From an uncultured Alphaproteobacteria bacterium (GTDB lineage Bacteria; Pseudomonadota; Alphaproteobacteria; MPNO01; DASWLB01): a stretch of 64,000 bases of DNA. The translations under genes were made by a program, and so were the position numbers. The first letter of the stretch is position 1, and each line of letters starts with the position of its first letter. A model generated the notes under the pieces. That model had not been told where the DNA came from. It searched no databases and saw only the letters and a list, made by a program, of their open reading frames with translations. Below are positions 813-56,168 of the stretch, in pieces. The stretch is from assembly GCA_963822575.1 (NCBI GenBank), contig CAWGHZ010000007.1, positions 1,375,655-1,439,654 on the forward strand, in the 5' to 3' direction.

Positions 813-1820
813 ATGAAACGGACCGTTTTCGCCGCGCTTGCCGCGCTTGCCTTCGTCGCCGCCCCGGTCGCCGACGCCCGCGCCAAGGTGACGCTCAAGC
901 TCGCCTTTCCTGCCCCGCCGCAGTCGCAGGTCTATACCTGGGGGATCGGGCCTTGGATCAAGGACGTGGAGAAGGCGGCCGGCGGCGCCTTGGAGATCAA
1001 GTTCTTCCCCGGCCCGGCGCTCGCCACCTTCGGCAACGCGTTGGACCGGGTGACCAGCAACGTCACCCAGATCGCGTTCGGCGTGGAAGGCCCCTACGCC
1101 AACCTGTTCCGCAAGTCAGACGTCGCCGAAATCCCGTTCCTGTCGGAAAGCGACGAGAATGCGAGCGTCGCGCTGTGGCGGCTCTACAAACAGGGACTTC
1201 TCGACAAGGCGTACGAGCGGGTCGAGCCGCTCGCCCTGTTCGTGTTTCCGGGGTCGGGCATCCACACCCATTTCCGCGTCAAGTCCCTCGACGATCTGAA
1301 GGGCCTCAAGATGGCGGTCTTCGCCCGCTCGTCGGCGGAGTACGCCGAGCTTCTGGGCGCGACGCCGATCACCATGACGCCGTCCGACGCCTACCAGGCG
1401 ACCCAGCGCGGCCTGGTCCAATCCATCATGGTCGGCTGGTCGGCCATCCTGCCCTTCAAGCTGCAGGAGGTGGTGAATTTCCACCTTCAGCTCGCCCTCG
1501 GACAGGCGCCGGCCTTCGTGTTCATGAACAAGGGCGCCTATGCCGGCCTGCCCGCCGACGTGAAGCGGGTGATGGACGAATATAGCGGCGAGCCGTTCTC
1601 GCGCCGCATGGGCCACACCACCGACCGGCAGAACGAGCTGGGGGCAACCGTCGTGGGCAAGATGCCGGGCCACACGATCTATCGCCTGCCGCCCGAGCAG
1701 TCCGAGGTCTGGCATAAGCGCCTGGCGCCGGCCGAGGAGAAGTGGGTGAAGGCGACGCCCGACGGCGCCAAGATCCTGGCCGCCTACAAGGCCGAGCTCA
1801 CCAAGCTGGAAAAGAAGTAG
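813..1820 (+). CDS. DctP-like (TRAP-type) periplasmic solute-binding protein, paralog 2
   Basis: ATG at 813 with GAGGGAG RBS; signal peptide MKRTVFAALAALAFVAAPVADA; SBP_bac_7-like motifs (DDLKGLK, MVGWSAI, KWVKATPDG). Confidence 0.8.
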   Translation: MKRTVFAALAALAFVAAPVADARAKVTLKLAFPAPPQSQVYTWGIGPWIKDVEKAAGGALEIKFFPGPALATFGNALDRVTSNVTQIAFGVEGPYANLFRKSDVAEIPFLSESDENASVALWRLYKQGLLDKAYERVEPLALFVFPGSGIHTHFRVKSLDDLKGLKMAVFARSSAEYAELLGATPITMTPSDAYQATQRGLVQSIMVGWSAILPFKLQEVVNFHLQLALGQAPAFVFMNKGAYAGLPADVKRVMDEYSGEPFSRRMGHTTDRQNELGATVVGKMPGHTIYRLPPEQSEVWHKRLAPAEEKWVKATPDGAKILAAYKAELTKLEKK

Positions 1821-1836
1821 GCGCAGGAGCCTCCCG

Positions 1837-2841
1837 ATGAAAACCGTTGCCGTCGCCGCGGCGGTTGCCACAATGCTCGCCTTCGCCGCGCCCGGCAAGG
1901 CGGCGGAGCCCATGCAGCTCAAGTTTGCGAGCCCTGGCCCGCCCGTTGGCGCAATCTTTCGCGGGCTCTCCGCCTTCGCCGCCGACCTCGACAAGGAGGC
2001 CGGCGGCACGCTGGACGTGAAGATGTTCGCGGGCGCGTCGATCGCCAATTTCGGCAACGTCTACGACCGCACGATCAACGGCGTCGCCGACATCGGCTGG
2101 GGCATCATCGGCCCGATCTCCTCGCTGTTTCCCAAGACCAACGTCGTCACCCTGCCGTTCGAGGTGGATTCGGGCCAGGTTGCCGCGATGGCGCTATGGA
2201 ACCTCTACAAGAGCGGCGTGATCGCGAGCGAGTATCAGAGGGTGCAGCCGCTCGGCTTCGTCGTGTTCCCCAAGATATCGCTGCACGCGCACAAGCCAAT
2301 CCGCACGATGGCCGACCTCGACGGCCTCAAGGTCAGCGCCGAGGGGCGGGTGCTTACGCACAGCCTCGAGGCGCTCGGCGCGACGCCGATCACGATGCCG
2401 GTCACCGACATCTACCAGAGCCTGCAGCGCGGGCTGGTCGATGCCACCGCCATCGCGTGGCCCGCCATCCTCGCTTTCAAGCTCAACGACGTGACGCGCT
2501 ATCACCTGGACGTCAGCCTCGGCAACGACGACGGCTTCATCTTCATGAACAAGGGCGCCTATGGGCGGCTGCCGGCCAAGGGGCGCGCGGCGCTCGACAA
2601 GCTCACCGGCCCTGCGCTGGTCACGCGCATGGAGAAGCAGGTAGCGGACGAGACCGAGGGGGCGAAGACGTTCACCGAGCACAAGATGCATCAGCCCATT
2701 GCCACGCTCGCGCCCGACGAGGCGGCACGCTGGAAGGCCAAGGTCGCACCCTCGATCGAGCAATGGGTGAAGGCGACGCCCGACGGTGCACATGTCCTGG
2801 CGGCCTTCCGCGCGGAGGTGCCGAAGCTCAGCGCCAAGTAG
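1837..2841 (+). CDS. DctP-like periplasmic solute-binding protein, paralog 3
   Basis: Signal peptide; paralogous to the two upstream ORFs. Confidence 0.8.
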   Translation: MKTVAVAAAVATMLAFAAPGKAAEPMQLKFASPGPPVGAIFRGLSAFAADLDKEAGGTLDVKMFAGASIANFGNVYDRTINGVADIGWGIIGPISSLFPKTNVVTLPFEVDSGQVAAMALWNLYKSGVIASEYQRVQPLGFVVFPKISLHAHKPIRTMADLDGLKVSAEGRVLTHSLEALGATPITMPVTDIYQSLQRGLVDATAIAWPAILAFKLNDVTRYHLDVSLGNDDGFIFMNKGAYGRLPAKGRAALDKLTGPALVTRMEKQVADETEGAKTFTEHKMHQPIATLAPDEAARWKAKVAPSIEQWVKATPDGAHVLAAFRAEVPKLSAK

Positions 2842-2975
2842 CCCCATCGACCAGGACAAGCCGGCCGCCCGATCCACGCGGCCGCGACGGTTGCGGCGGC
2901 GCGCCGCGCCGGTGCGCGGCATCCGTCGTCTAACCCGAAGCGACCCATCCCGTCTGTCATGTCACGGAGAAGCAC

Positions 2976-3983
2976 ATGTACCGAACGAAGTTGTTGGCCC
3001 TTTGCGCCGCCGCACTGATCGCCACGCCGGCCCTTGCCCAGGAGCCGGCGAAGCTGAAATACGCATCACCCGCGCCGCCGCAGTCGCTGATCACCGTCTG
3101 GGGCGTCGGCCCCTGGCTCAAGGATGTGGTCAAGGAGTCCGGCGGCACCATCCAGATCCAGTCGTACCTCGGCGCCGTTCTCGGCAATTTCAATCAGGTG
3201 CTCGACCGAACCCGGGCCGGCGTCGACGATATCGGCTGGGGTATCCTGGGCCCGTATTCCGGCGAATTCCCGCAGACCGACGTCGCCTCCCTGCCGTTCA
3301 TCGCGCCGGAATCCAAGGCCTCGAGCATCGCGCTGTGGCGGCTCCTGAAGCGGGGCGTGATCAAGGACCAGTGGGACAGGGTGAAGGTGCTCGGCCTGTT
3401 CAACTTCCCGCCCGCGAGCTTCCACTCGAACAAGCCGATCCGCGGCCTCGCCGACTTCAAGGGGTTGAAGATCGGCGTGTCGGTGCGCGTCATCGCCGAG
3501 CTGGTGCGGGTCGCCGGTGCCGCCGCCGTCACCATGCAGCCCTCCGACATGTACCAGGCCGGGCAGCGCGGCGTGGTCGACGGGGTTGCCATCGGCTGGC
3601 CGGCCTTCTACCCGTTCAAGCTGCAGGAAGTGACGAAGTACCATATCGACGGCCCGTTCGGCGGCACGCCGTCGTTCGTCATCATGAACAAGAACTCGTA
3701 CGCCCGGCTTCCCGCCAAGGCGCGCGCCGCCTTCGACAAGCTGGGCGGCGAGACCCTGTCGGCCCACATGGGCGCCACGACCGACAAGATGGACAAGGAG
3801 GGCGAAGCCCGCGTGCGGGCGATGAAGGGTCACGAGTTCTTCACCCTCGCGCCGGCCGAGGAAGCAGCCTGGAAGAAAAAGGCTCAGCCGATCGTCGAGA
3901 AATGGATCAAGGCGACGCCGAACGGCCGCGCCGTCCTCGACGCCTACGAGGGCGAGTACGAAAAGTTGCTGAAGGGCCAGTGA
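2976..3983 (+). CDS. DctP-like periplasmic solute-binding protein, paralog 4
   Basis: Signal peptide MYRTKLLALCAAALIATPALAQE; same motif set. Confidence 0.8.
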   Translation: MYRTKLLALCAAALIATPALAQEPAKLKYASPAPPQSLITVWGVGPWLKDVVKESGGTIQIQSYLGAVLGNFNQVLDRTRAGVDDIGWGILGPYSGEFPQTDVASLPFIAPESKASSIALWRLLKRGVIKDQWDRVKVLGLFNFPPASFHSNKPIRGLADFKGLKIGVSVRVIAELVRVAGAAAVTMQPSDMYQAGQRGVVDGVAIGWPAFYPFKLQEVTKYHIDGPFGGTPSFVIMNKNSYARLPAKARAAFDKLGGETLSAHMGATTDKMDKEGEARVRAMKGHEFFTLAPAEEAAWKKKAQPIVEKWIKATPNGRAVLDAYEGEYEKLLKGQ

Positions 3984-4006
3984 CGCGGCGCGCCCCTGCC
4001 GTCATC

Positions 4007-4036
4007 GCGACCCTCGGGCCACGGCCTGAGGGTCGC
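4007..4036. terminator. 9-bp stem hairpin (GCGACCCTC...GAGGGTCGC) between convergent genes; possible bidirectional terminator
   Basis: Inverted repeat read directly; no U-tract. Confidence 0.35.
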
Positions 4037-4043
4037 GAATTCG

Positions 4044-5657
4044 CTAGGCCGTCCCGAGCGGCAGGGGGCTCGATTCCGACTGGTCGATCATGGCGTGGGC
4101 GAGACGCTCTGCCATTTCGCCGCGCACGTCGCGGTGGGCCGGGTCGTCCCACAGATTGACCTTCTCGTCCGGGTCGTTCGCGACGTCGTAGAGTTCTCCC
4201 CACGCCTCGCCGCGATAGATGGTCATCCGCCAGCGTCGCGTGATCAGCGAGCGCATGGCGAGGATGCCAGCCCTGCCCATGAACGGCCGCTGCGCGCCGT
4301 ACTCGACGATGATGCCGTCGTGCCCCTCGGCGTCCTCGCCCGCGATGGCGGGGACGAGGCTCCGCCCCTGGATGCCGTTGTACGGCTCGAGCCCCGACCG
4401 GTCGAGATAGGTGGCGGCGAGGTCGAGCGTGCCGCAGAGCGCGTCGCTGGTGGCGCCCGCGCGGTTCGCCAGCGCGGGATCGGCCCAGAGGAACGGCACC
4501 TGCACGAGCCCGCGATTGGCGAACGAGCCTTTCAGCATCAACTGGTGGTCGCCCATCAGGTCGCCGTGGTCGGAGGTGAAGGCGACGATCGTGTCCCCCT
4601 CCAATCCCAACGCACGAAGCTTGGCGAGCACCGTGCCGATCGCGTCGTCGACCAGCGTGATCATGCCGTAGGTCAGCGCCAGCGCCTCCTTCGTCTCCTC
4701 GGCGGTCACCGCGAAGGCCGCCTGCGCCTTGGCGAAGCGCGTGCCGTCGTCGCGCTGGGCATGGAGCCATGCCTCCTGCGGCGTCGGCCGGCCGTTTCCG
4801 AGGTCGAACGCGGAGGGCAGCGGCATGTCCTTGGGGTCGTACATGTCCCAGTACTTGCCCGGCGGGGTGAACGGGTGGTGCGGGTCGTTGAACGAGCATT
4901 GGATCATGAAGGGCCGCGACCGGTCGGACTTCGCCCAGTCATCGAGGATCGCGTTGGTGCGCTCGGCGATGAACGTCGTCGGGTAGAGCTCGACGGGCAC
5001 CGCGGTGCGCCAGGCCTGCGGCACGGTCATATTGTTGCCGGGAAGCTGGTTCTCCGGCCCCATCAGCGCGCGCATGTTGGAATGCCGCGCCTCGGCCCAG
5101 CGCAGATAGTCGCCATGGCAGAGATCGCCGTGCCCGTCGCACAGCTCCACCCGCTCGAACCCGTAGAACGGCAGGCGCATGCGGTGCGCCGTGTCCGCCC
5201 AGCGCGACGGGATCTCCTGCTCGTAGCCGGCGGGATCGTCGTCGTCGCGCAGCGCCTCGCGCAGCCCTTCAGGCGGCGGCGCCTTGCCCTCCTTCCCCCA
5301 CTCGCGCTTATAGGCGGGCGGCGGGCCGACCATGTTCTGGATATGGCTCTTGCCCACCAGCGCGGTGCGCCAGCCGGCGACGCGCATCAGCTCGACGAAC
5401 GTGTTGGCGCGGAGCGACAGCGCGAGGCCGTTATGCCGCACGCCGTGCAGCGAGGGCAGCCGTCCGGTCATCAGGGTCGCGCGGTTCGGCTGGCATACCG
5501 GGCTCGCTACCGTGAAGCGGGTGAACCGGACGCCCCTCGCCGCGATGGAATCGATATTCGGCGTGCGGACGATTGGATTGCCCGCGCAGGCGATGTGATC
5601 GGCGCGCTGCTGGTCGGTGATGAACAGGAGGAAGTTCGGACGCTCGGACGTGGCCAT
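4044..5657 (-). CDS. Sulfatase (arylsulfatase family), no signal peptide
   Basis: N-terminal LLFITDQQRAD and C-x-P-x-R formylglycine motif (SPVCQPNRATLMTGR); 537 aa. Confidence 0.85.
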   Translation of the reverse strand: MATSERPNFLLFITDQQRADHIACAGNPIVRTPNIDSIAARGVRFTRFTVASPVCQPNRATLMTGRLPSLHGVRHNGLALSLRANTFVELMRVAGWRTALVGKSHIQNMVGPPPAYKREWGKEGKAPPPEGLREALRDDDDPAGYEQEIPSRWADTAHRMRLPFYGFERVELCDGHGDLCHGDYLRWAEARHSNMRALMGPENQLPGNNMTVPQAWRTAVPVELYPTTFIAERTNAILDDWAKSDRSRPFMIQCSFNDPHHPFTPPGKYWDMYDPKDMPLPSAFDLGNGRPTPQEAWLHAQRDDGTRFAKAQAAFAVTAEETKEALALTYGMITLVDDAIGTVLAKLRALGLEGDTIVAFTSDHGDLMGDHQLMLKGSFANRGLVQVPFLWADPALANRAGATSDALCGTLDLAATYLDRSGLEPYNGIQGRSLVPAIAGEDAEGHDGIIVEYGAQRPFMGRAGILAMRSLITRRWRMTIYRGEAWGELYDVANDPDEKVNLWDDPAHRDVRGEMAERLAHAMIDQSESSPLPLGTA

Positions 5658-40399: not shown

Positions 40400-42518
40400 T
40401 CAGTGCGGCAGCAGCCCGGCGAGGATGGCGAGCAGCAGCAGCGCCACGATGTTGATGATCTTGATCATCGGGTTGACCGCCGGTCCCGCCGTGTCCTTGT
40501 ACGGGTCGCCGACCGTGTCGCCGGTCACCGCCGCCTTGTGCGCGTCGGAGCCCTTGCCGCCGTAATGGTCGTCCTCGATATACTTCTTGGCGTTGTCCCA
40601 GGCGCCGCCGCCCGAGGTCATCGAGATCGCGACGAACAGGCCGGTGACAATGGTGCCGAGCAGCAGTGCGCCGAGGGTGGTGAACGCCGCCACCTCGCCG
40701 GCGATCCACCAGATCACCAGCCAGACGACGATCGGCGCCAGCACCGGTAGCAGCGACGGCAGGATCATCTCGCGGATCGCCGCCCTGGTCAGCAGATCGA
40801 CGGCGCGGCCGTACTCGGGCTTGGCCGTGCCCGCCATGATGCCGGGGATCTCCTTGAACTGGCGGCGCACCTCGACGACCACGCTGCCCGCCGCGCGGCC
40901 GACCGCCTGCATGCCGAGCGAGCCGAACAGATAGGGCAGCAGACCGCCGAGCAGCAGACCGACGACGACGTAGGGGTCCTGCAGGCGGAACTCGATCTGG
41001 CCGGCGAGGTTCGGGAAGTAGTGCTTGAGGTCCTGGGTGTAGGCGGCGAACAGCACCAGCGCGGCGAGGCCCGCCGAGCCGATGGCATAACCCTTGGTCA
41101 CCGCCTTGGTGGTGTTGCCTACGGCGTCGAGCGCGTCGGTCGAGGTGCGCACTTCGGCCGGCAGGTCGGCCATCTCGGCGATGCCGCCCGCGTTGTCCGT
41201 GACCGGCCCGTAGGCGTCGAGCGCGATCACCACCCCGGCGAGCGCCAGCATGGTGGTCGCGGCGAGCGCGATGCCGAACAGCCCGGCCGCGTAATAGGCG
41301 AGCAGGATGCCGGCGCAGATCACAACCACCGGCAGGGCCGTCGCTTCCATCGACACGGCGAGCCCCTGGATCACGTTCGTGCCGTGGCCGGTCTGCGAGG
41401 CGCGGGCGACCGACAGCACCGGCTTGTGGTCGGTGCCCGTGTAGTACTCTGTAATCCACACCAGGAGGCCGGTGACGCCCAACCCGACCAGGACGCATTC
41501 CATCAGGGAGAAGCCGGTGAGCTGGACGGCGCCCATCGCGATCGGCGCCGAAAAGCCCCCGAACAGGACCCAGGTGGCGATACCGACCAGCACGAACGAG
41601 ATCGCCGCCGAGGCGATGAAGCCCTTGTAGAGCGCGCCCATGATGTTGTTGGACGGGCCCAGCCGGACGAAGAACACGCCGATCACCGAGGCGATGATGC
41701 ACACCCCGCCGATCACCAGCGGGTAGACCATCATCGTCTCCAGCGGCGCACCGGTGAAGAAGATGCCGGCGAGCAGCATGGTCGCCACCATGGTGACCGC
41801 ATAGGTCTCGAACAGGTCGGCCGCCATGCCGGCGCAGTCGCCCACGTTGTCGCCCACGTTGTCGGCGATCACGGCGGCGTTGCGGGGGTCGTCCTCGGGG
41901 ATACCCGCCTCGATCTTGCCGACCAGGTCGGCGCCGACGTCGGCGCCCTTGGTGAAGATGCCGCCGCCGAGCCGCGCGAAGATCGAGATCAGCGAGCCGC
42001 CGAACCCGAGCGCGACCAGCGCCTCGAGGATGTGGCGGAGCCCCGCGGGGTCGGCCGCGTTGAAGATGCCGCGCAGCACGAAATAATAGCCGGCGACACC
42101 CAACAGCCCGAGCCCGACCACCAGCATGCCGGTGATCGCACCCGACTTGAAGGCAATGTCGAGCGCCGGGCGAAGCCCGCCGGAGCGTGCCGCCTCGGCC
42201 GTCCGCACATTGGCCCGGACCGAGACGTTCATGCCGAGATAGCCCGCCGCGCCCGACAGGATGGCGCCGATGGCGAACCCGATCGCGCTGTAGACGCTCA
42301 GCAGGAATCCGAAGAATCAGGCAAACCACGATGCCGACGATGCCGATGGTGGTGTATTGCCGGTTGAGGTAGGCCTTCGCGCCCTCCTGGACCGCGGCCG
42401 CGATCTCCTGCATGCGCGCGGTGCCGGCGCTGGCGGCGAGGATCGCGCGGGACGCCCAGGCGCCGTAGCCGAGCGCCACGATCCCGCACGCGATCACAAA
42501 CCAGTAAGTCGATGTCAT
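40400..42518 (-). pseudogene. hppA: K+/H+-translocating membrane pyrophosphatase (HppA), frameshifted near 42311-42322
   Basis: N-terminal 70 aa ([21 protein letters not shown]...) in one frame, the remaining 610 aa (..[24 protein letters not shown]..) in the +1 frame. Confidence 0.8.
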
Positions 42519-47047: not shown

Positions 47048-48525
47048 CTATAGGTATTGCGGCTGGCGCTGAATCAATCTTCGAAGCCCGATCAGCAACG
47101 TGCGCTCTGCCCCACCCGGTCGTCCGGACATTAGCCACATAGTCAACGTCACCGCCGAAAACACGACCACACCAGAGACTACCGAAGCTCCAAGGACCAT
47201 GCCCCATCCAAGAGCATCATGCGAATGGGGTAGCTGCGCTTGGCACTCGAGAACGACGACGACCATCACGAGAGATCCTATCAATGGCCGATATAGGACC
47301 CCAAGAAGCCTTCCTGGAGCGAGGTTAAGAATTCGGCAAACAAGTAGAAAGTCAATGAATGACGAAACCGCTGCACCGCCGGTAACCGCCCATGCCGCTC
47401 CAACAACTCCAAGGTGGCTCACACCTATAACAAGCAATGGCAACATCACGATGGCGCCACCACCAAAAACCCATGCGGGATATTGCGGCCGCGAACATGC
47501 CATGAACAAGGGATGACTGCACGAGGTTAAGCAGGCAAGCAGCGCATAAACGGAAAGGACATGCATGATAGGTATCGCGGCGACCCATTTTTCGCCAAGC
47601 GCCAAGTGAACCACGGAACTGGCAACAAGGCCCAAGCCGACGGCAACGGGCACGGCAAAAAGGCTCGCGAGGCCGAATACTCCGAGGAAAGCCTGACGTA
47701 GCTCCGGCAGGTCTCCAGAAATCTTCGCGAAAGCAGGATAGATGCCACGCCTCATGGGCGCCAAGAGAAGACCGGTCACCATATCCATGATTTCAAGTGC
47801 AATCGTGTATACACCGACCGACTGGGCTCCCGCGAGCCGGCCCAGCACGAAGACATCGCTCTTTCTATATAAAAAGACACCAGAATTGACTAGGATCAGC
47901 CATTTCGAAAAATGCATGATCTCGCGCCAATGCTGGAACTCAGCCGCGGGCGCATGGGCTGCATCGTGTAGCTGAGGACAAGCGCACCACGGAGAGGCCG
48001 CGATTCCGGCCACCAATGCCCAATAGCTCGCGAAATGATGGCCAGCGGGATGATCACGACGAAACCGCCCAGCTTCGTAACCACCATGTAAATGAAGTCG
48101 CGGCGGAAATTGAGCTGCTTGCGGAAATCTACGAGGCCGATGTTCTGGAACCCATCGATCAATGTCGTGCCCGCCAGGCAATACACGATCGCCTCGAGCC
48201 GCGCGTCGCCGAACAACTCGGCGAAACGAACGGCGCGGCGGGAAGGAGCGCCAGCGCCAGGACCGCGTTGCGGCAGATGGCGAGCGTCCACGCCGTATCG
48301 TAATGCTGGCGTGTCGCCTTCTGGTTCTGGATCAGGACCGTGTCGAGGCTGAACTCGGTCACCGCCTGAAGGGCCCCGGAAAAGGTAGTGGCGAGCGCGA
48401 CGAGGCCGAAATCGGCCGGGACGAGCAGTCGCGCCAGAATGATCGTGCTGAGCATCCCGATCCCCTGCGACGGCGAGCCGCGCGCCGACAGTCCAGGCGG
48501 TGCCCTTGGCCATCTCGCGGCCCAT
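47048..48525 (-). pseudogene. wzx: Wzx-like polysaccharide flippase (polysaccharide biosynthesis protein family), at least three frameshifts
   Basis: Flippase N-terminus ..AWTVGARLAVAG / GIGMLSTIILARLLVPADFGLVALA split at a GGGG run (48462); further shifts near 48240 and 48000; C-terminal 370 aa intact. Confidence 0.65.
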
Positions 48526-49954
48526 GCCCTGGGTCGCCGCGCGGCACTCGGCTCGGACGACGGTGCCGTCGGGTCGCGACGGGCGTGCGGACGACGTCAT
48601 ATCTATGCGCGCCGGCATAGCGCCTTCCCCGATAAGGCCGTTCGAGAAACGCCTCCGCACGGGCGAACTGCAAGTCGCGGGCCAACCCCTCGCGCGCGGC
48701 GACCGGAAGGCGTGGGATGACCCCCTGCGCCGCTTTCTCGCGCGCCCAATCCCGCAAGTGTCCGGCGATGACGTCGGGATCCGTCGACACGGCCCCGGCC
48801 CGGCGGGCGCGCACGAAGTCCGCAGGCACCCCCTTGTCATATCCCATCACCAGGATCGGTCGCAGGCTCGCCAGATATTCGAACAGCTTGCCGGGGCAGT
48901 TGCCGGTCTCCATCGGGTTGTCCCACTGCATGAGAAGCAGGACGTCGGCATCCCATTGGAGCTGCAGCGATTTGTCGTACGGCACCGCCGGGTGTACCTC
49001 CACCAGGTGCCGTACGCCCGCCCTTTCGGCAAGCGGCCAGACCGCTTCGGGAGCGGTCCCATAAAATTCGAGAACGAAACGTTCGCCCTCGGGATCGATC
49101 TGCCGCAACGCCTGGAACAAGGGCGTCGGGTCGCGGCGCCCGACATAGATCGCCCCGGTGTAGACGATCCGCACCTTCGCCGAGACGGATTTCGGCGGCG
49201 CGCTCGGGTCGAACGAAAAATCCTTGGGATCGTAGCCGTTATAGACCGTCGCGACAGGCTTGCCGTATTTGGCACGATAGAACTCGCACCACGGCTCGGT
49301 GACGGTAACGATGCCCGTGGCGTTACGCAGCGTGCGCCGCTCCACCCACTGTTCCAGCCTGTGGCGCCAGCGCGGCCAATCCAGGAAGCGGTAGGGATCG
49401 TCCGCCCAACGATCGCGGAGCTCCGCGAGCCATGGCACGCCGAGCCGGGCACTCGCGCGGTGCGCGACGAGGAAGGCGGTGAAGGACGGGCCGCTGGCAT
49501 AGATCGCATCCGGCCGCCATGCCCGCCCCAGGCGCAGCACGTCGCGCAACGCGTACGGGTACCACCCGACCCGTTGGTCCGGGATGTTCAGCAGATTCGT
49601 GTAGCAGTCGGACAGACGCCGCAGCAACGCCGGGCGCGACGTGCCGTTATCCGCTGCGCCCGTCTCGGCTTGGGGCGCGGCGGTTTCGGCGAGGGAGGCC
49701 GGCGGCTGCCCGGTCATCCGGGTCCACAGCCCGCTGCCCAGCCGGACGGGCGCGTTGACGTCGAACCAGTTGGAATACGAAAGCCGCTTCAGCTCGATTC
49801 CCAGCGGCATGGTCTCGGGCATGCCCCAGTCGCGGCCCGCCACAACGCCGACTTCGTGCCCCCGCTCGACCAGGTAACGGGTGAACTTGCCGACACGCAC
49901 TGCGCCGATCGCATTGACCGGAGGAAAGTACCACGAAACGATCAGAATTCGCAT
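48359..49954 (-). CDS. Glycosyltransferase family 4 (C-terminal boundary uncertain; the ORF runs on into wzx N-terminal region in another frame)
   Basis: Start MRILIVSWYFPP; GT4 N-terminal and C-terminal sugar-binding domains; true stop probably near 48550-48700. Confidence 0.7.
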   Translation of the reverse strand: MRILIVSWYFPPVNAIGAVRVGKFTRYLVERGHEVGVVAGRDWGMPETMPLGIELKRLSYSNWFDVNAPVRLGSGLWTRMTGQPPASLAETAAPQAETGAADNGTSRPALLRRLSDCYTNLLNIPDQRVGWYPYALRDVLRLGRAWRPDAIYASGPSFTAFLVAHRASARLGVPWLAELRDRWADDPYRFLDWPRWRHRLEQWVERRTLRNATGIVTVTEPWCEFYRAKYGKPVATVYNGYDPKDFSFDPSAPPKSVSAKVRIVYTGAIYVGRRDPTPLFQALRQIDPEGERFVLEFYGTAPEAVWPLAERAGVRHLVEVHPAVPYDKSLQLQWDADVLLLMQWDNPMETGNCPGKLFEYLASLRPILVMGYDKGVPADFVRARRAGAVSTDPDVIAGHLRDWAREKAAQGVIPRLPVAAREGLARDLQFARAEAFLERPYRGRRYAGAHRYDVVRTPVATRRHRRPSRVPRGDPGHGPRDGQGHRLDCRRAARRRRGSGCSARSFWRDCSSRPISASSRSPLPFPGPFRR

Positions 49955-50145: not shown

Positions 50146-51255
50146 TCAGCCTGCGAAATCTGCCAGGCGCACCGGCTGGCGGCGCGGGCCCCAGTCGCCG
50201 GGGCGCGGCTCGAACACGCCGGGAAGCCTGGCGCCGCAGCCGGTGCAGCATCCCTCCGCGTCCAGGTTCCACGCCCCCAGCGCGTACCAGTCGCGTTCGA
50301 TCAGGAGCGTGCCGCAGGCGGGGCACCACGTGCTGCCGCCGGCGGCGTCGTGCACGTTGCCGGTATAGACAAAGCGGAGCCCACGGGCCCGGGCGATCTC
50401 GCGCGCGCGGCCAAGGGTCGCAGCCGGGGTGGCATGCTTGCCGGTCATCTTCCAATCGGGATGGAAGGCGGTGAAGTGCACCGGCACGTCCGGGCCCAAA
50501 TGATCGCCAATCCACGCACATTCGGCGTCGATCTCGCCCGGCGAGTCGTTCTCGCCGGGGATCAGGAGCGTGGTGATCTCGAACCAGACCTTTGATTCGG
50601 CAAGATATTCTAGCGTCTCCAGAACTGGCGTCAGCGATCCGCCGCAGATCTTCCGGTAGAAATCGTCGGTGAACGCCTTCAGGTCCACGTTCGCCGCGTC
50701 CATGTGGGCGTAGAACTCGGCCCGCGCGGCGGGAAGCTGGTAGCCGGCCGTCACCGCGACGGTCTTGATCCCCCGCGCGCGGCACGCCTCGGCCACGTCG
50801 ATCGCGTATTCATGGAAGATGACGGGATCGTTGTAGGTGAAGGCGACCGACCGGCAGCCGAGCGCCTGGGCGGCGCGGGCGATGGTGTCGGGCGCGGCCT
50901 CGTCGGCCAGCGTATCCATCTCGCGCGATTTCGAGATGTCCCAGTTCTGGCAGAACTTGCAGGCGAGGTTGCAGCCCGCCGTGCCGAACGACAGGACCGG
51001 CGTTCCCGGCAGGAAATGGTTGAGCGGCTTCTTCTCGATCGGGTCGACGCAAAAGCCCGACGAGCGGCCGTAGGTGTCGAGCACGATGGAATCGCCCGCG
51101 CGCGACCGCACGAAACAGAGCCCGCGCTGGCCGTCGGCCAGCCGGCAGCGGCGCGGGCAGATCTCACACTCGATCCGCTGGTCGGCGAGCTTGCGGAAAT
51201 GGCGGCCCGGCGCGGGCGCCGGCCGGGCCGTCGGTCGACTCAGTATGCGTGCCAT
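50146..51255 (-). CDS. AmmeMemoRadiSam system radical SAM enzyme
   Basis: CNLACKFC (CxxxCxxC) radical SAM motif plus N-terminal Cys cluster ECEICPRRC; divergent from the Memo/AMMECR1 pair. Confidence 0.8.
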   Translation of the reverse strand: MARILSRPTARPAPAPGRHFRKLADQRIECEICPRRCRLADGQRGLCFVRSRAGDSIVLDTYGRSSGFCVDPIEKKPLNHFLPGTPVLSFGTAGCNLACKFCQNWDISKSREMDTLADEAAPDTIARAAQALGCRSVAFTYNDPVIFHEYAIDVAEACRARGIKTVAVTAGYQLPAARAEFYAHMDAANVDLKAFTDDFYRKICGGSLTPVLETLEYLAESKVWFEITTLLIPGENDSPGEIDAECAWIGDHLGPDVPVHFTAFHPDWKMTGKHATPAATLGRAREIARARGLRFVYTGNVHDAAGGSTWCPACGTLLIERDWYALGAWNLDAEGCCTGCGARLPGVFEPRPGDWGPRRQPVRLADFAG

Positions 51256-51338
51256 GGAGCGATTCCTCGCCTTGCAGATAGGCGGGCGAGACCACAGATT
51301 CAACAACATCTAGGCCACTCTTGCGAGGGGACATCAAT

Positions 51339-52130
51339 ATGCCGGTCGTCCAGCGCGCTGCCGTCGCCGGCACGTTCTATCCGGGCGAGCCGGACGTTCT
51401 CGCCCGCACGTTGGCGACGCTCCTCGCCACGGCCGAGCCCGAGACCGAGGGGCCGGTGCCCGCGGCGATCGTCGCGCCGCACGCGGGCTACGTCTATTCC
51501 GGCCCGATCGCGGCCAGCGCCTATGCCCGTCTCGCGCCCCTCAAGGGCACGGTGCGGCGTGTCGTTCTGATCGGGCCCGCGCACCAGCTCTATTTCCACG
51601 GCATCGCCGCGCCCACCGCGGACCAGTTCGAGACGCCGCTCGGCGCGATCCCGGTCGACCGCGCGGCGGTCGCGCGCCTCCTCGCGCTGCCGCACGTCGC
51701 CGAGAACGACGCCGCCTTTGCGGGCGAGCACTGCCTGGAAGTGCATCTTCCCTTCCTCCAGACCGTGCTGGGCGATTTCACGCTGGTGCCGCTGATCGCG
51801 GGCCATGCCGGCGGGCGCGACGTGGCCGAGGTGCTGGAGCTGTTGTGGGCCGGTCCCGACACGCTGCCGGTGATCTCGTCCGACCTCAGCCACTACCACG
51901 ATTACGAGACGGCCCGCCGGCGCGACGCCGAGACCGCTCGCGCCATCGAGGCGTTGGCCGGCGAACGGCTCGACTACGACGATGCCTGCGGCCGCACCCC
52001 GATTGCCGGGCTTCTGCAGGTCGCGCGGGCGCGCGGCCTTGCCGCCCGCACCGTCGACCTCCGCAACTCGGGCGACACGGCCGGCCCGCGCGGCGAGGTG
52101 GTGGGCTACGGCGCCTGGGTCGTGGAATGA
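51339..52130 (+). CDS. AmmeMemoRadiSam system protein B (MEMO1 family)
   Basis: MEMO-like sequence (IVAPHAGYVYSG, HCLEVHLPFLQ, SSDLSHY); GAGGGGACA RBS. Confidence 0.8.
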   Translation: MPVVQRAAVAGTFYPGEPDVLARTLATLLATAEPETEGPVPAAIVAPHAGYVYSGPIAASAYARLAPLKGTVRRVVLIGPAHQLYFHGIAAPTADQFETPLGAIPVDRAAVARLLALPHVAENDAAFAGEHCLEVHLPFLQTVLGDFTLVPLIAGHAGGRDVAEVLELLWAGPDTLPVISSDLSHYHDYETARRRDAETARAIEALAGERLDYDDACGRTPIAGLLQVARARGLAARTVDLRNSGDTAGPRGEVVGYGAWVVE

Positions 52131-52729
52131 CGGCGACCGCCCTCGCCGCGCCGCTCGATGCGCTGATCGAGGCATACGGCGCGGCGCTTCTCGACCTCGC
52201 CGTCGCCTCGGTGCGGCACGGGCTGGAACGCGGCTGCCCGCTCGCGGTCGACGCCGTGCCGGCGGCCCTCGGCGAGGCTGGGGCGTCCTTCGTAACGCTG
52301 CACCGGCTGGGCGAGCTGCGCGGCTGCATCGGCAGCGCGCGGGCGTGGCGTGCGCTCGCCGCCGACGTCGCGGACAACGCCTTCGGTTCGGCATTCCACG
52401 ATCCCCGCTTCGCGCCGCTCACGGAAGACGAGCTCGAGGCGCTCGACCTCGACCTCTCGCTCCTTGGCGCGCCCGAGCCGTTCCCGGTCGACTCCGAGGC
52501 CGGGCTGATCGCGGCGCTGACGCCCGGCCGCGACGGGCTGATCCTCTCCGAGGGCGGGCGACGCGGGCTGTTCCTGCCGGCGGTGTGGGAGCAGGTCGAC
52601 GACCCGGGCGAATTCGTTCGTCACCTGAAATACAAGGCGGGGCTTCCCGCCGACCATTGGTCGGACCGCATTGTCGTCGAGCGGTTCGAGACCCGCTCGA
52701 TCGCGCGCGAGCGCGCCTGGGCGGCGTGA
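52127..52729 (+). CDS. AmmeMemoRadiSam system protein A (AMMECR1 domain)
   Basis: AMMECR1 hallmark ..GELRGCIGS..; start overlaps the Memo stop (ATGA). Confidence 0.8.
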   Translation: MTATALAAPLDALIEAYGAALLDLAVASVRHGLERGCPLAVDAVPAALGEAGASFVTLHRLGELRGCIGSARAWRALAADVADNAFGSAFHDPRFAPLTEDELEALDLDLSLLGAPEPFPVDSEAGLIAALTPGRDGLILSEGGRRGLFLPAVWEQVDDPGEFVRHLKYKAGLPADHWSDRIVVERFETRSIARERAWAA

Positions 52730-54937: not shown

Positions 54938-55645
54938 TTAGTGATCGAGGCCGCTGCCGATCGCCCCGACGTGCCCGCTCGCGCCCGCCCCCTCGTTCTC
55001 GGGGACGTTGTAGAGCGCATTGGGGTTGCGCGTCGGTTGGGCGTTATAGGTTGTCAGGTCCGAGATCTGGTCGCGGCTCAGGTCCGTGCCGATCATCAGC
55101 GCGCCATTCACGCGGTTGATCCGCACGTGATCCGACCGCAACAGCACCTCGTGCTGGCCCATGCCGAGGAACTGGCCGGTGCTGACCACCAGCCCGTCGT
55201 CGAGCGCGCGCACCACGTTGCCGATCTGCTGGCCCTGCTGGTCGAGCACCGGGCGGCCGATCAGCGCCGCCCTGCGGTGCAGCCGGTCCGACATGTTCGC
55301 GCTCATGCCCTCGTTGGCCTTGTTCTCGACGCCGTGGTTTCCCTTGTTGAACTCGTTCCCGGCGCCGAGGTTCGACCGGCTGCCGTTGCCCTCCTCGTTG
55401 CTCAGGTAGGGCCCGTTCTCGCCATTGCCGTTCTGCTTGTCCTGCATGGTGAGCGGGGTGGTCTCGCGCCCCGACTGGTCCGTCTTGTCGATCGGGTGGA
55501 CGCCCTGGACCTGCGGCGTGATCTCGCCGCCCGCGCTGCTCGTCGAGCTGCCGGTGTAGTGGTCACCTTTAAACGCGGCCATGCCGGCGCCCGACGTGGC
55601 CATCAGCGCGGCGCTCGCGACCGCGATCATCAGTTTGTAACGCAT
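54938..55645 (-). CDS. Secreted PRC-barrel domain protein with Gly/Asn/Glu-rich central region
   Basis: Signal peptide; C-terminal PRC-barrel-like LIGRPVLDQQGQQIGNVVRALDDGLVV; AAGGAG RBS. Confidence 0.6.
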   Translation of the reverse strand: MRYKLMIAVASAALMATSGAGMAAFKGDHYTGSSTSSAGGEITPQVQGVHPIDKTDQSGRETTPLTMQDKQNGNGENGPYLSNEEGNGSRSNLGAGNEFNKGNHGVENKANEGMSANMSDRLHRRAALIGRPVLDQQGQQIGNVVRALDDGLVVSTGQFLGMGQHEVLLRSDHVRINRVNGALMIGTDLSRDQISDLTTYNAQPTRNPNALYNVPENEGAGASGHVGAIGSGLDH

Positions 55646-55715: not shown

Positions 55716-56168
55716 TCAACGCATGGAGCCGCCTACCGCTCCGCCCGGCTGGTATTCGGGCATATTTTCGAGCTGGCCGGCGTTGAGGCTGGAGATCACG
55801 GAGAGCTTGCCGCGCGCGCGGGTGGCCGTGAGGTTGACCGGCTTCACGAGCACCTTGTGCGTGCCGATGCCCATCGTGCGCCCGACGCTGATCACGACCC
55901 CGTCGGGGGTGATGCGCGTGACCTCGCCGATCTGGTGGCCGTCCGCGCTGAGCACTGGGGCGTCGAGCAGCGCCCGGTCGCTCGGCACCATCTCCACATT
56001 GCGGATGCCCTTGAGATAGCTGTTCTCCTGAATCTGCTCAGGATTCTGCGCCGCAGGATTGGGCTCGCCCATATTGCCCATCTTGTCGTGGTGTTCCGCT
56101 GCGATCGCCGCCCCCGAGGCCGACAGCAGGACCGCGCTGGCGAGCGCCAGCATCGTCTTGTACGTCAT
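55716..56168 (-). CDS. Secreted PRC-barrel domain protein (paralog)
   Basis: Signal peptide; VLSADGHQIGEVTRITPDGVVISVG PRC-barrel-like; GGAAGGAG RBS. Confidence 0.6.
   Translation of the reverse strand: MTYKTMLALASAVLLSASGAAIAAEHHDKMGNMGEPNPAAQNPEQIQENSYLKGIRNVEMVPSDRALLDAPVLSADGHQIGEVTRITPDGVVISVGRTMGIGTHKVLVKPVNLTATRARGKLSVISSLNAGQLENMPEYQPGGAVGGSMR

Follow-up and report, generated by a model that had tools for sequence, protein, structure and literature searches.

Two questions are raised by the three neighbouring genes for a radical SAM enzyme, a Memo-like protein and an AMMECR1-domain protein described here: do they form a genuine and intact AmmeMemoRadiSam system, and what might such a system do next to a group of polysaccharide genes? 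The genes lie in a stretch of 64,000 nucleotides (hereafter the window), and their host chromosome is alphaproteobacterial with a high G+C content. The association of the three genes was described by Balaji and Aravind in 2007 (PMC2034487), and "Memo-Ammecr1 systems" is the name used in PMC7159879. A first-pass annotation had claimed a complete trio, which is confirmed by the following features:

50146-51255, minus strand: amrS, AmmeMemoRadiSam system radical SAM enzyme, 369 aa (ORF; TIGR04337, PF04055)
51256-51338, no strand: divergent spacer of 83 bp with the presumed Shine-Dalgarno sequences GAGGAA (before amrS) and GAGGGGA (before amrB) (sequence)
51339-52130, plus strand: amrB, AmmeMemoRadiSam system protein B (Memo-like), 263 aa (ORF; TIGR04336, PF01875)
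52127-52729, plus strand: amrA, AmmeMemoRadiSam system protein A (AMMECR1 domain), 200 aa (ORF; TIGR04335, PF01871)

The whole trio is clustered within 2.6 kb. As described before, amrS is divergent from amrB-amrA, although the spacer between them is one of 83 bp and not of 84 bp. The ATGA overlap reported for the Memo and AMMECR1 genes is found at 52127-52130 (4 bp; GTGGAATGACGG at 52121-52132), where the start codon of amrA (ATG, 52127-52129) runs into the stop codon of amrB (TGA, 52128-52130). The start codons ATG 51255 (amrS) and ATG 51339 (amrB) are kept in related genomes (four supporting), and NCBI/ENA records contain identical proteins of 369, 263 and 200 aa. Two longer ORF starts from a mechanical listing, ATG 51309 and TTG 51321, were rejected as they are not conserved in related genomes. 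No additional copies of amrS, amrB or amrA were found within the 64-kb window.

Each of the three proteins has its own AmmeMemoRadiSam family model (TIGR04335-TIGR04337, all typed "hypoth_equivalog") as the top match, aligned end to end and at 2-10x the curated cutoff. AmrS reaches 620.7 bits with TIGR04337 (cutoff 220, E 6e-187, profile positions 2-349 of 349) and also matches PF04055 (Radical_SAM, Pfam). For AmrB the score with TIGR04336 is 252.2 bits (cutoff 26, E 5e-75; PF01875, Memo, 3.7e-48), and for AmrA 184.6 bits with TIGR04335 (cutoff 99, E 1e-54; PF01871, AMMECR1, 1.5e-43). The G+C content of the three genes ranges from 0.69 to 0.74, compared to a window mean of 0.685. It is close to certain that 50146-52729 is a bona fide and intact AmmeMemoRadiSam locus.

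Three cysteine motifs characterize AmrS:

50950-50973, minus strand: radical SAM cluster motif CNLACKFC (C95, C99, C102; residues 95-102), from a regular-expression search of the translation and inside the PF04055 match
51115-51168, minus strand: N-terminal Cys4, C30-x2-C33-x3-C37-x9-C47, from the alignment of homologues
50236-50325, minus strand: C-terminal Cys4, C311-x2-C314 ... C337-x2-C340, zinc-ribbon-like, from the alignment of homologues

The CX3CX2C motif and both Cys4 sets are invariant in 21 homologues with 68-84% identity. The CxxxCxxC motif and the extra N-terminal Cys cluster of the first-pass annotation are both present, as CNLACKFC and as C30/C33/C37/C47; the C-terminal C311/C314...C337/C340 set was absent from it. 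The N-terminal Cys4 is a probable auxiliary Fe-S or metal site, while the C-terminal set looks zinc-ribbon-like, the metal in both being a prediction. In the PDB, the top match of an AlphaFold model of AmrS is the PFL-activating enzyme 3c8f (Foldseek E 4.7e-11, TMt 0.74-0.75).

The functional residues of the two partner proteins are likewise in place:

51477-51491, plus strand: PHAGY (H48), Memo pocket, aligned with human MEMO1
51573-51584, plus strand: GPAH (H82), Memo pocket, aligned with human MEMO1
51876-51893, plus strand: SSDLSH (D182, H185), Memo pocket, aligned with human MEMO1
51984-51995, plus strand: ACGR (C217), Memo pocket, with the CGR motif shared by human MEMO1
52316-52333, plus strand: AMMECR1 signature LRGCIG, which contains the conserved Cys67, from the alignment with the same motif in 1zq7 and 1vaj

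The His/His/Asp/His/Cys pocket of Memo is complete in AmrB, which is homologous to human MEMO1 (PDB 3bcz, 7kq8; LigB-type extradiol dioxygenase-like superfamily) over residues 4-188 (E 7e-18) and conserves its metal-pocket motifs PHAGY, GPxH, SSDxxH and CGR. In contrast to the human protein, AmrB is linked in the genome to a radical SAM gene, is shorter (263 aa versus the crystallised chain of ~294 aa) and stays under the cutoff of the "MEMO1 family protein" equivalog (155 versus 295 bits). AmrA carries the same domain as the archaeal AMMECR1 proteins PH0010 (1vaj) and MM0484 (1zq7), with conservation of the LRGCIG Cys and of G-L-x-LP-x-V; although it also passes TIGR00296, the archaeal AMMECR1 family (100.2 versus 91.05 bits), its score with the system-specific model for protein A is higher (184.6 bits).

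Among the matches listed, the divergent arrangement of amrS and amrB-amrA is the commonest one (47 of 80 genomes, many phyla), and it is also present in the three nearest relatives. In 29 of the 80 genomes listed, no Memo or AMMECR1 gene lies within ~6 kb of the radical SAM gene, or the contig end is reached, and tight linkage is therefore common, not universal. The reading frames of Memo and AMMECR1 are broken in the close relative L083; the same assembly series shows indel errors elsewhere. All-against-all ORF clustering of 82 neighbourhoods (among the matches listed) revealed no fourth conserved gene, as none is present in more than 6 of them. Minor recurrent neighbours, assigned by sequence only, are CysQ/inositol-monophosphatase-like, RpoD, glutamate dehydrogenase, RelA/SpoT, phosphoribosyltransferase and TreS-like proteins. 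Measured against AmmeMemoRadiSam (TIGR04335/TIGR04336/TIGR04337; amrA/amrB/amrS), the window copy shares the models end to end, the signature residues and the commonest layout. Nothing of substance differs, and the local particulars are a genus-specific spacer and a variable glycan island.

Single-chain fusions occur in both orders, as rSAM-AMMECR1-Memo proteins of ~1050-1150 aa and, reversed, as Memo-AMMECR1-rSAM, with each domain passing its TIGR model. Given these fusions in both orders, AmrS, AmrA and AmrB very probably belong to one complex or pathway. The AMMECR1-Memo linker of the triple fusions (~190 aa) was considered as an extra domain and discarded, since it is poorly conserved from one fusion to another and has neither a Pfam match nor a homologue in the window. 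Bona fide TIGR04337 domains (368-416 bits) are also found fused to membrane redox modules, namely DsbD_2 transmembrane, FMN_bind/RnfG-like and NapH/NosR-type Fer4_5 domains.

The spacer was screened for a regulator site shared by both transcription units, which the first-pass annotation had proposed to look for, and none conserved beyond the genus was found. Two further elements were located within it:

51270-51306, no strand: best-conserved spacer block, on the amrS sense strand TTGTTGAATCTGTG...CCTATCTGCAAGG, from the comparison with relatives
51266-51271 and 51285-51290, no strand: 6-bp inverted repeat CTCGCC/GGCGAG, from the sequence

Identity of the spacer to the relatives amounts to 76-82%, compared to 66-69% for third codon positions in the genes on either side, and the motifs TTGTTGAATCTGTG and CCTATCTGCAAGG are invariant in the window and in the related loci L001, L082 and L083. 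Back-to-back promoters and both Shine-Dalgarno sites are presumed to share the spacer, and the conserved block is a candidate amrS promoter (-35 TTGAAT, 16-17 nt, -10 CTATCT). This candidate goes without the support of the promoter scanner, which gave no sigma-70 consensus match in the spacer. FixK/Fnr, RirA, Irr and IscR boxes were discarded as by eye none of them fits, and no Rfam match was obtained in the spacer or across the locus at E <= 1. The best-conserved block is missing from more distant loci, and the spacers of ~50 divergent loci (among the matches listed) have no motif in common with the window; by eye, only generic -35-like words (TTGACA/TTGCAA) recur in them. Conservation of the spacer is limited to close relatives and is genus-specific.

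The first-pass annotation called the biochemical function of the system unknown, which still holds: our full-text literature searches found no experimental function for AmmeMemoRadiSam, only computational predictions. A modification initiated by radical SAM chemistry and carried out by a three-part complex is our best inference. AmrS, with a PFL-activase-like radical SAM core and two extra Cys4 metal sites, would use its [4Fe-4S] cluster for the reductive cleavage of SAM, yielding a 5'-deoxyadenosyl radical that would take a hydrogen from the substrate. AmrA, with Cys67 in LRGCIG, might present this substrate, and AmrB could perform a subsequent redox or hydrolytic step at its mononuclear His/His/Asp/His/Cys metal site. 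As the target, a conserved housekeeping molecule seems more likely than anything made by the adjacent glycan genes. It might be an RNA base, an isoprenoid lipid or a residue within the partner proteins themselves, any single substrate class being at best a tentative choice.

If AmrS is of the activase type, its substrate might be a residue in one of the two partner proteins, for instance in the AMMECR1 RGC loop, and the three together would make up a self-contained radical enzyme. This is possible, if rather unlikely. It agrees with the PFL-AE-like core of AmrS (by HMM and by fold), with the single-chain fusions in either order and with the absence of any conserved neighbouring gene that could encode a separate substrate (82 neighbourhoods, among the matches listed). 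However, eukaryotic AMMECR1 and MEMO1 are generally known to work without a radical SAM partner. To our knowledge eukaryotes have kept MEMO1 and AMMECR1 and lack an AmrS homologue, so both can function without radical SAM chemistry. For relatives of this rSAM clade, peptides have been predicted as substrates (PMC7159879), which again favours a partner residue as the target. The narrower proposal that AmrS modifies a residue of AMMECR1 within or close to its invariant RGC loop, or else one of Memo, which would make the trio a previously unrecognised radical enzyme, is distinctly improbable.

Installation of an RNA base modification has also been put forward (PMC2034487, Balaji and Aravind 2007; PMC4075521), with AMMECR1 as a nucleic-acid-binding RAGNYA module that would transfer a group via its conserved Cys. 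The proposal builds on the RAGNYA fold, the conserved Cys and the linkage of archaeal AMMECR1 genes to NFACT and PIN-RNase genes (PMC4075521; PMC6393860), and a universal macromolecular target would fit the very high conservation of AmrS across phyla (64-73% identity, among the matches listed). We nevertheless hold it to be fairly unlikely, as it is purely computational and the 82 bacterial neighbourhoods (among the matches listed) contain no recurrent RNA-processing gene. The similarity of the radical SAM protein to MiaB claimed in its favour is not borne out here, because the nearest relatives of AmrS are PFL-AE-type activases by both HMM and fold.

As a third substrate, a membrane isoprenoid or another lipid comes into consideration. 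Burroughs et al. are said to have proposed such a lipid or membrane isoprenoid modification by the trio (JBC, 2019), and the fusion of genuine TIGR04337 domains to membrane redox modules is consistent with it. Yet these modules may merely feed electrons to the cluster, the three proteins of the system in the window are without a membrane module, and isoprenoid genes were not noticed among the recurrent neighbours (82 neighbourhoods, among the matches listed), which leaves a lipid target unlikely.

Returning to the locus itself, the system had been described as lying directly beside a lower-GC polysaccharide island. Such an island is indeed nearby, as a low-GC stretch (GC 0.56) at ~45.1-48.2 kb, but it does not adjoin the system: the gene next to amrS encodes a GT4 glycosyltransferase of normal GC, and the low-GC stretch starts ~2 kb beyond it. 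Within ~±6 kb of the locus we found GT4, flippase, methyltransferase, DegT, DUF2934, phosphorylase and GH15 genes. In the source assembly the flippase and an H+-PPase gene carry apparent frameshifts. A joint function with the island or with alpha-glucan genes, for instance in modifying a sugar or a glycolipid by radical chemistry, could be read from this neighbourhood, since the GT4 glycosyltransferase and then the flippase follow amrS on the same strand, an adjacency of amrS to glycan genes that recurs in L001, and the opposite flank carries alpha-glucan phosphorylase and GH15 glucoamylase; in five Steroidobacteraceae loci a TreS-maltokinase-like gene is located beside AMMECR1. The conserved tie suggested by this proximity did not hold up, as island content and orientation vary among close relatives (in L082 and L083, amrS is followed by a convergent gene of other content) and the island is absent from 80 distant loci (among the matches listed). 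Homologues of the GT4, phosphorylase and GH15 genes of the window were likewise missing from these 80 more distant loci and occurred only in the three nearest relatives, and the alpha-glucan link was rejected as lineage synteny. With every neighbour family confined to at most 6 of the 82 loci (among the matches listed) and a GC of 0.56 in the island versus 0.69-0.74 in the trio, a shared function is very improbable. Judged from sequence, the nearness of the AmmeMemoRadiSam locus to the polysaccharide island is incidental.

That amrS encodes an activase of pyruvate formate-lyase or of another glycyl-radical enzyme, or an anSME-type maturase, merely situated beside the Memo and AMMECR1 genes, is effectively refuted: most homologues bear the JGI label "pyruvate formate lyase activating enzyme", PflA and the GRE-activase models are the second-best HMM matches and PFL-AE is the closest structure, but AmrS reaches only 58.3 bits with PflA (cutoff 231.75) as against 620.7 with TIGR04337, stays 3-10x under the cutoffs of the other activase models (PFLE_PFLC 54.7 versus 174.35, NrdG2 42.2 versus 131.15, YjjW 46.8 versus 250.2) and has no SPASM (PF13186) or anSME match among its Pfam and NCBIfam matches at E <= 0.001. 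While AmrS shares the radical SAM fold and an equivalent position of the cluster motif with PflA (TIGR02493; PDB 3c8f/3cb8) and other GRE activases, it is ~120 residues longer than PFL-AE, contains two extra invariant Cys4 motifs (the N-terminal set and the C-terminal CxxC...CxxC) and is paired with Memo and AMMECR1, not with a glycyl-radical enzyme, none of which is encoded within ~±6 kb.

Taken as a whole, we consider it highly probable that the locus is a typical AmmeMemoRadiSam set, native in composition, independent in function of the neighbouring polysaccharide island and acting through a single complex. In kind it is already known, as a named and widespread bacterial trio, and little is added beyond a confirmed annotation. 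Two of the three proteins have disease-linked human homologues, AMMECR1 being connected with the AMME contiguous-deletion syndrome and MEMO1 with cell motility and metal homeostasis. If the partner proteins were indeed the substrate of AmrS, the biochemistry of human AMMECR1 and MEMO1 would become accessible for the first time, an idea that the copy in the window makes no more testable than thousands of others do. Since the locus is one typical copy among these thousands, its main value lies in correct annotation: amrS is neither a PFL activase, as many pipelines label it, nor part of a glycan island. For the biochemistry of the family, the frequent single-chain three-domain fusions and the AmrS domains fused to membrane redox modules offer leads.

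All three reading frames named in the first-pass annotation are present in the mechanical ORF list of the window:

50146-51255, minus strand: amrS, radical SAM gene, 369 aa, start ATG 51255 with GAGGAA upstream; TIGR04337, 620.7 bits (cutoff 220), E 5.8e-187, profile positions 2-349 of 349
51339-52130, plus strand: amrB, Memo-like gene, conserved start ATG 51339 with GAGGGGA upstream; TIGR04336, 252.2 bits (cutoff 26), E 5.2e-75
52127 (start), plus strand: amrA, AMMECR1-like gene, start overlapping the amrB stop; TIGR04335, 184.6 bits (cutoff 99), E 1e-54

The scores come from searches of the three window proteins against NCBIfam; with all products above the cutoffs of the models suggested at first pass, family membership is established, and the Pfam domains are Radical_SAM, Memo and AMMECR1, respectively. 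The longer mechanical amrS ORF (50146-51309, minus strand) starts at an ATG found only in the window and not in the loci of its three nearest relatives (L001, L082, L083), whereas ATG 51255, preceded by GAGGAA, is kept in all of them (82-86% protein identity), and we therefore set the gene at 50146-51255 with 369 aa. The amrB/amrA overlap by ATGA, as first described, is visible in GTGGAATGACGG. The amrS and amrB frames are favoured as coding by GC3-based frame analysis, in which the amrA frame fell below the filter set. NCBI/ENA records hold proteins identical to AmrS, AmrB and AmrA, all from one contig.

An anSME or PflA identity of the radical SAM protein had been named at first pass as speaking against the three-gene reading. 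No SPASM/anSME model in NCBIfam or Pfam matches AmrS, every other glycyl-radical activase model there stays far under its cutoff, and PflA, the NCBIfam model for pyruvate formate-lyase activating enzyme (PFL-AE), reaches 58.3 bits against a cutoff of 231.75. Most listed AmrS homologues are called 'pyruvate formate lyase activating enzyme' in JGI/IMG, a name that this PflA score (58 versus 232 bits) does not support. The catalytic signatures of the AmmeMemoRadiSam proteins are intact. Both the CxxxCxxC motif (CNLACKFC, C95/C99/C102) and the extra N-terminal cysteine cluster (C30-x2-C33-x3-C37-x9-C47) noticed earlier are invariant in an alignment with 21 AmrS homologues, as are C69 and the C-terminal C311-x2-C314...C337-x2-C340. 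AmrB retains all pocket motifs aligned with human MEMO1 (PHAGY, GPAH, SSDLSH, ACGR), and AmrA retains LRGCIG (Cys67) and GLFLPAV. There is no solved AmrS structure, the closest PDB entries by sequence being PFL-activating enzyme. The AlphaFold model (pLDDT 78, pTM 0.83) has a PFL-AE-like core, with PFL-AE as best structural match (E 4.7e-11, TMt 0.74-0.75), followed by lipoyl synthase, MoaA and HydE.

The AmrS family is, judged by sequence, large and tight, with at least 8000 90%-identity clusters at E <= 1e-20, the best 120 of which are each at least 69% identical and stem from Alpha- and Gammaproteobacteria, Planctomycetota and Myxococcota. GTDB species genomes contain at least 80 amrS loci, the listed matches being 64-73% identical; these 80 include Gemmatimonadota, Acidobacteriota, Nitrospirota, Chloroflexota and Actinomycetota. 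Clustering is conserved: 47 of the 80 have exactly the layout of the window (amrB followed by amrA, both pointing away from amrS) and 4 another adjacent layout, while in 29 neither partner lies in the flanking sequence retrieved. When all ORFs of 90 aa or more from 82 neighbourhoods were clustered all against all, no additional gene family appeared in more than 6 loci; there is no conserved fourth component. The 64-73% AmrS identity extends to Gemmatimonadota, Planctomycetota, Acidobacteriota, Nitrospirota, Chloroflexota and Actinomycetota (L002-L081), and among these listed matches other Alphaproteobacteria are no nearer than distant phyla. The partners diverge more (Memo 46-61%, AMMECR1 34-60%, mostly 42-56%), which points either to unusually strong constraint on AmrS or to one AmrS clade having spread horizontally.

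Natural fusions of the domains were found outside the window, in a library of 50%-identity representatives in which 1867 clusters match AmrS at E <= 1e-30:

P0126, P0128, P0131, P0136, P0146, P0242: single-chain fusions of all three domains, both orders
P0197, P0216, P0177, P0222: TIGR04337 fusions to a membrane redox module or beta-propeller

All five scanned matches of ~1050-1150 aa are radical SAM-AMMECR1-Memo fusions; in one protein of 835 aa the domains run Memo-AMMECR1-radical SAM. Every domain passes its own TIGR model in two triple fusions checked (NCBIfam); the radical SAM-AMMECR1-Memo chains have ~190 poorly conserved residues between their AMMECR1 and Memo domains, without a Pfam match. 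The second group carries genuine TIGR04337 domains (368-416 bits), and its membrane modules (DsbD_2 transmembrane, FMN_bind/RnfG-like, NapH/NosR-type Fer4_5 ferredoxin) hint that electrons are supplied from the membrane or that the reaction is located there.

We infer that AmrS, AmrB and AmrA form one complex. AmrS would reductively cleave SAM and then abstract a hydrogen atom, AMMECR1 would bind or carry the substrate via its conserved Cys, and a later step would use a mononuclear metal site in Memo. Isoprenoid lipids were reportedly proposed as substrate by Burroughs et al. in 2019. A reaction directed at a partner protein is also compatible with the fusions, with a core of the activase type and with the absence of further conserved genes. 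An RNA base has been proposed as well (PMC2034487; PMC4075521). Taken singly, each of these three classes seems to us rather unlikely to be the right one.

The divergent spacer (51256-51338) measures 83 bp, one less than first stated. Among the window and its three nearest relatives it is 76-82% identical; the corresponding value for third codon positions in amrS and amrB is 66-69%. As to a shared regulator site, TTGTTGAATCTGTG and CCTATCTGCAAGG (51270-51306, amrS sense strand) are invariant in these four genomes; no motif is common to the window spacer and those of the distant loci (0 to ~390 bp, one exception ~1.3 kb), so that any regulation is lineage-specific. Read on the amrS strand, the motifs give TTGAAT, 16-17 nt and CTATCT, a plausible candidate alphaproteobacterial sigma-70 promoter for amrS, left unflagged by a promoter scanner with a stricter consensus. 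A 6-bp inverted repeat (CTCGCC/GGCGAG) flanks the -10-like element on both sides; in L001 one of its G:C pairs is apparently replaced by A:T through a compensating change, four sequences being too few for a structure claim. The spacer has no Rfam match.

The low-GC island noted beside the system is present (GC 0.54-0.60 over ~45-48 kb, 0.69-0.74 in the three amr genes), but begins one gene away. The genes that follow amrS on its own strand encode a GT4 glycosyltransferase, a Wzx-type flippase, a methyltransferase and a DegT-family aminotransferase; the other side holds DUF2934, alpha-glucan phosphorylase, two unannotated proteins and GH15 glucoamylase. The polysaccharide cluster between amrS and the H+-translocating pyrophosphatase (H+-PPase) gene occupies:

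window, ~42.5-50.0 kb
L001:11282-16920
L082:11110-21113
L083:11113-13931

Its gene content and orientation vary across these four genomes between constant flanks: L001 resembles the window, whereas L082 and L083 differ and retain amrS and the H+-PPase/aldehyde-oxidase flank. Because, in addition, none of the window's flanking genes recurs in the 80 distant loci, we read the adjacency, from sequence comparison, as a variable surface-glycan island inserted at a fixed chromosomal site, not as a functional partnership.

The flippase gene (47060-48540, minus strand) matches the intact 524-aa L001 protein in three frames, hence at least two frameshifts, and identity is 88% over residues 44-112 but only 45% over residues 176-513, so that the island edge looks to fall inside this gene. 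The H+-PPase (40403-42518, minus strand) is 93-95% identical to that of L083 with one frameshift near 42312. Such a break in a housekeeping gene suggests assembly indel errors, probably long-read, and frameshifts in the window should therefore not be taken as pseudogenes by default without polishing. In L083 (8537-9779) the Memo and AMMECR1 genes are broken across frames beside an intact amrS (83% identical), either by partner decay or by an assembly error like those of the window. Between the phosphorylase and glucoamylase genes, two paralogous ORFs (54938-55645 and 55716-56168, minus strand; mutually 29-36% identical, no Pfam matches) have hydrophobic N-termini resembling signal peptides and occur also in L001 and L082. 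Five Steroidobacteraceae (L022, L024, L027, L063, L074; about 1100-4570 each) carry a ~1150-aa ORF convergent with AMMECR1 that by sequence alone resembles trehalose-synthase/maltokinase, on the side where the window lineage has alpha-glucan phosphorylase and GH15 glucoamylase; this is probably coincidental lineage synteny.

Apart from spacer length and island position, the first-pass observation and its interpretation as a three-gene AmmeMemoRadiSam system were right. The system has had a name and family models for more than 10 years, and the window copy is typical of it in sequence, motifs and arrangement.
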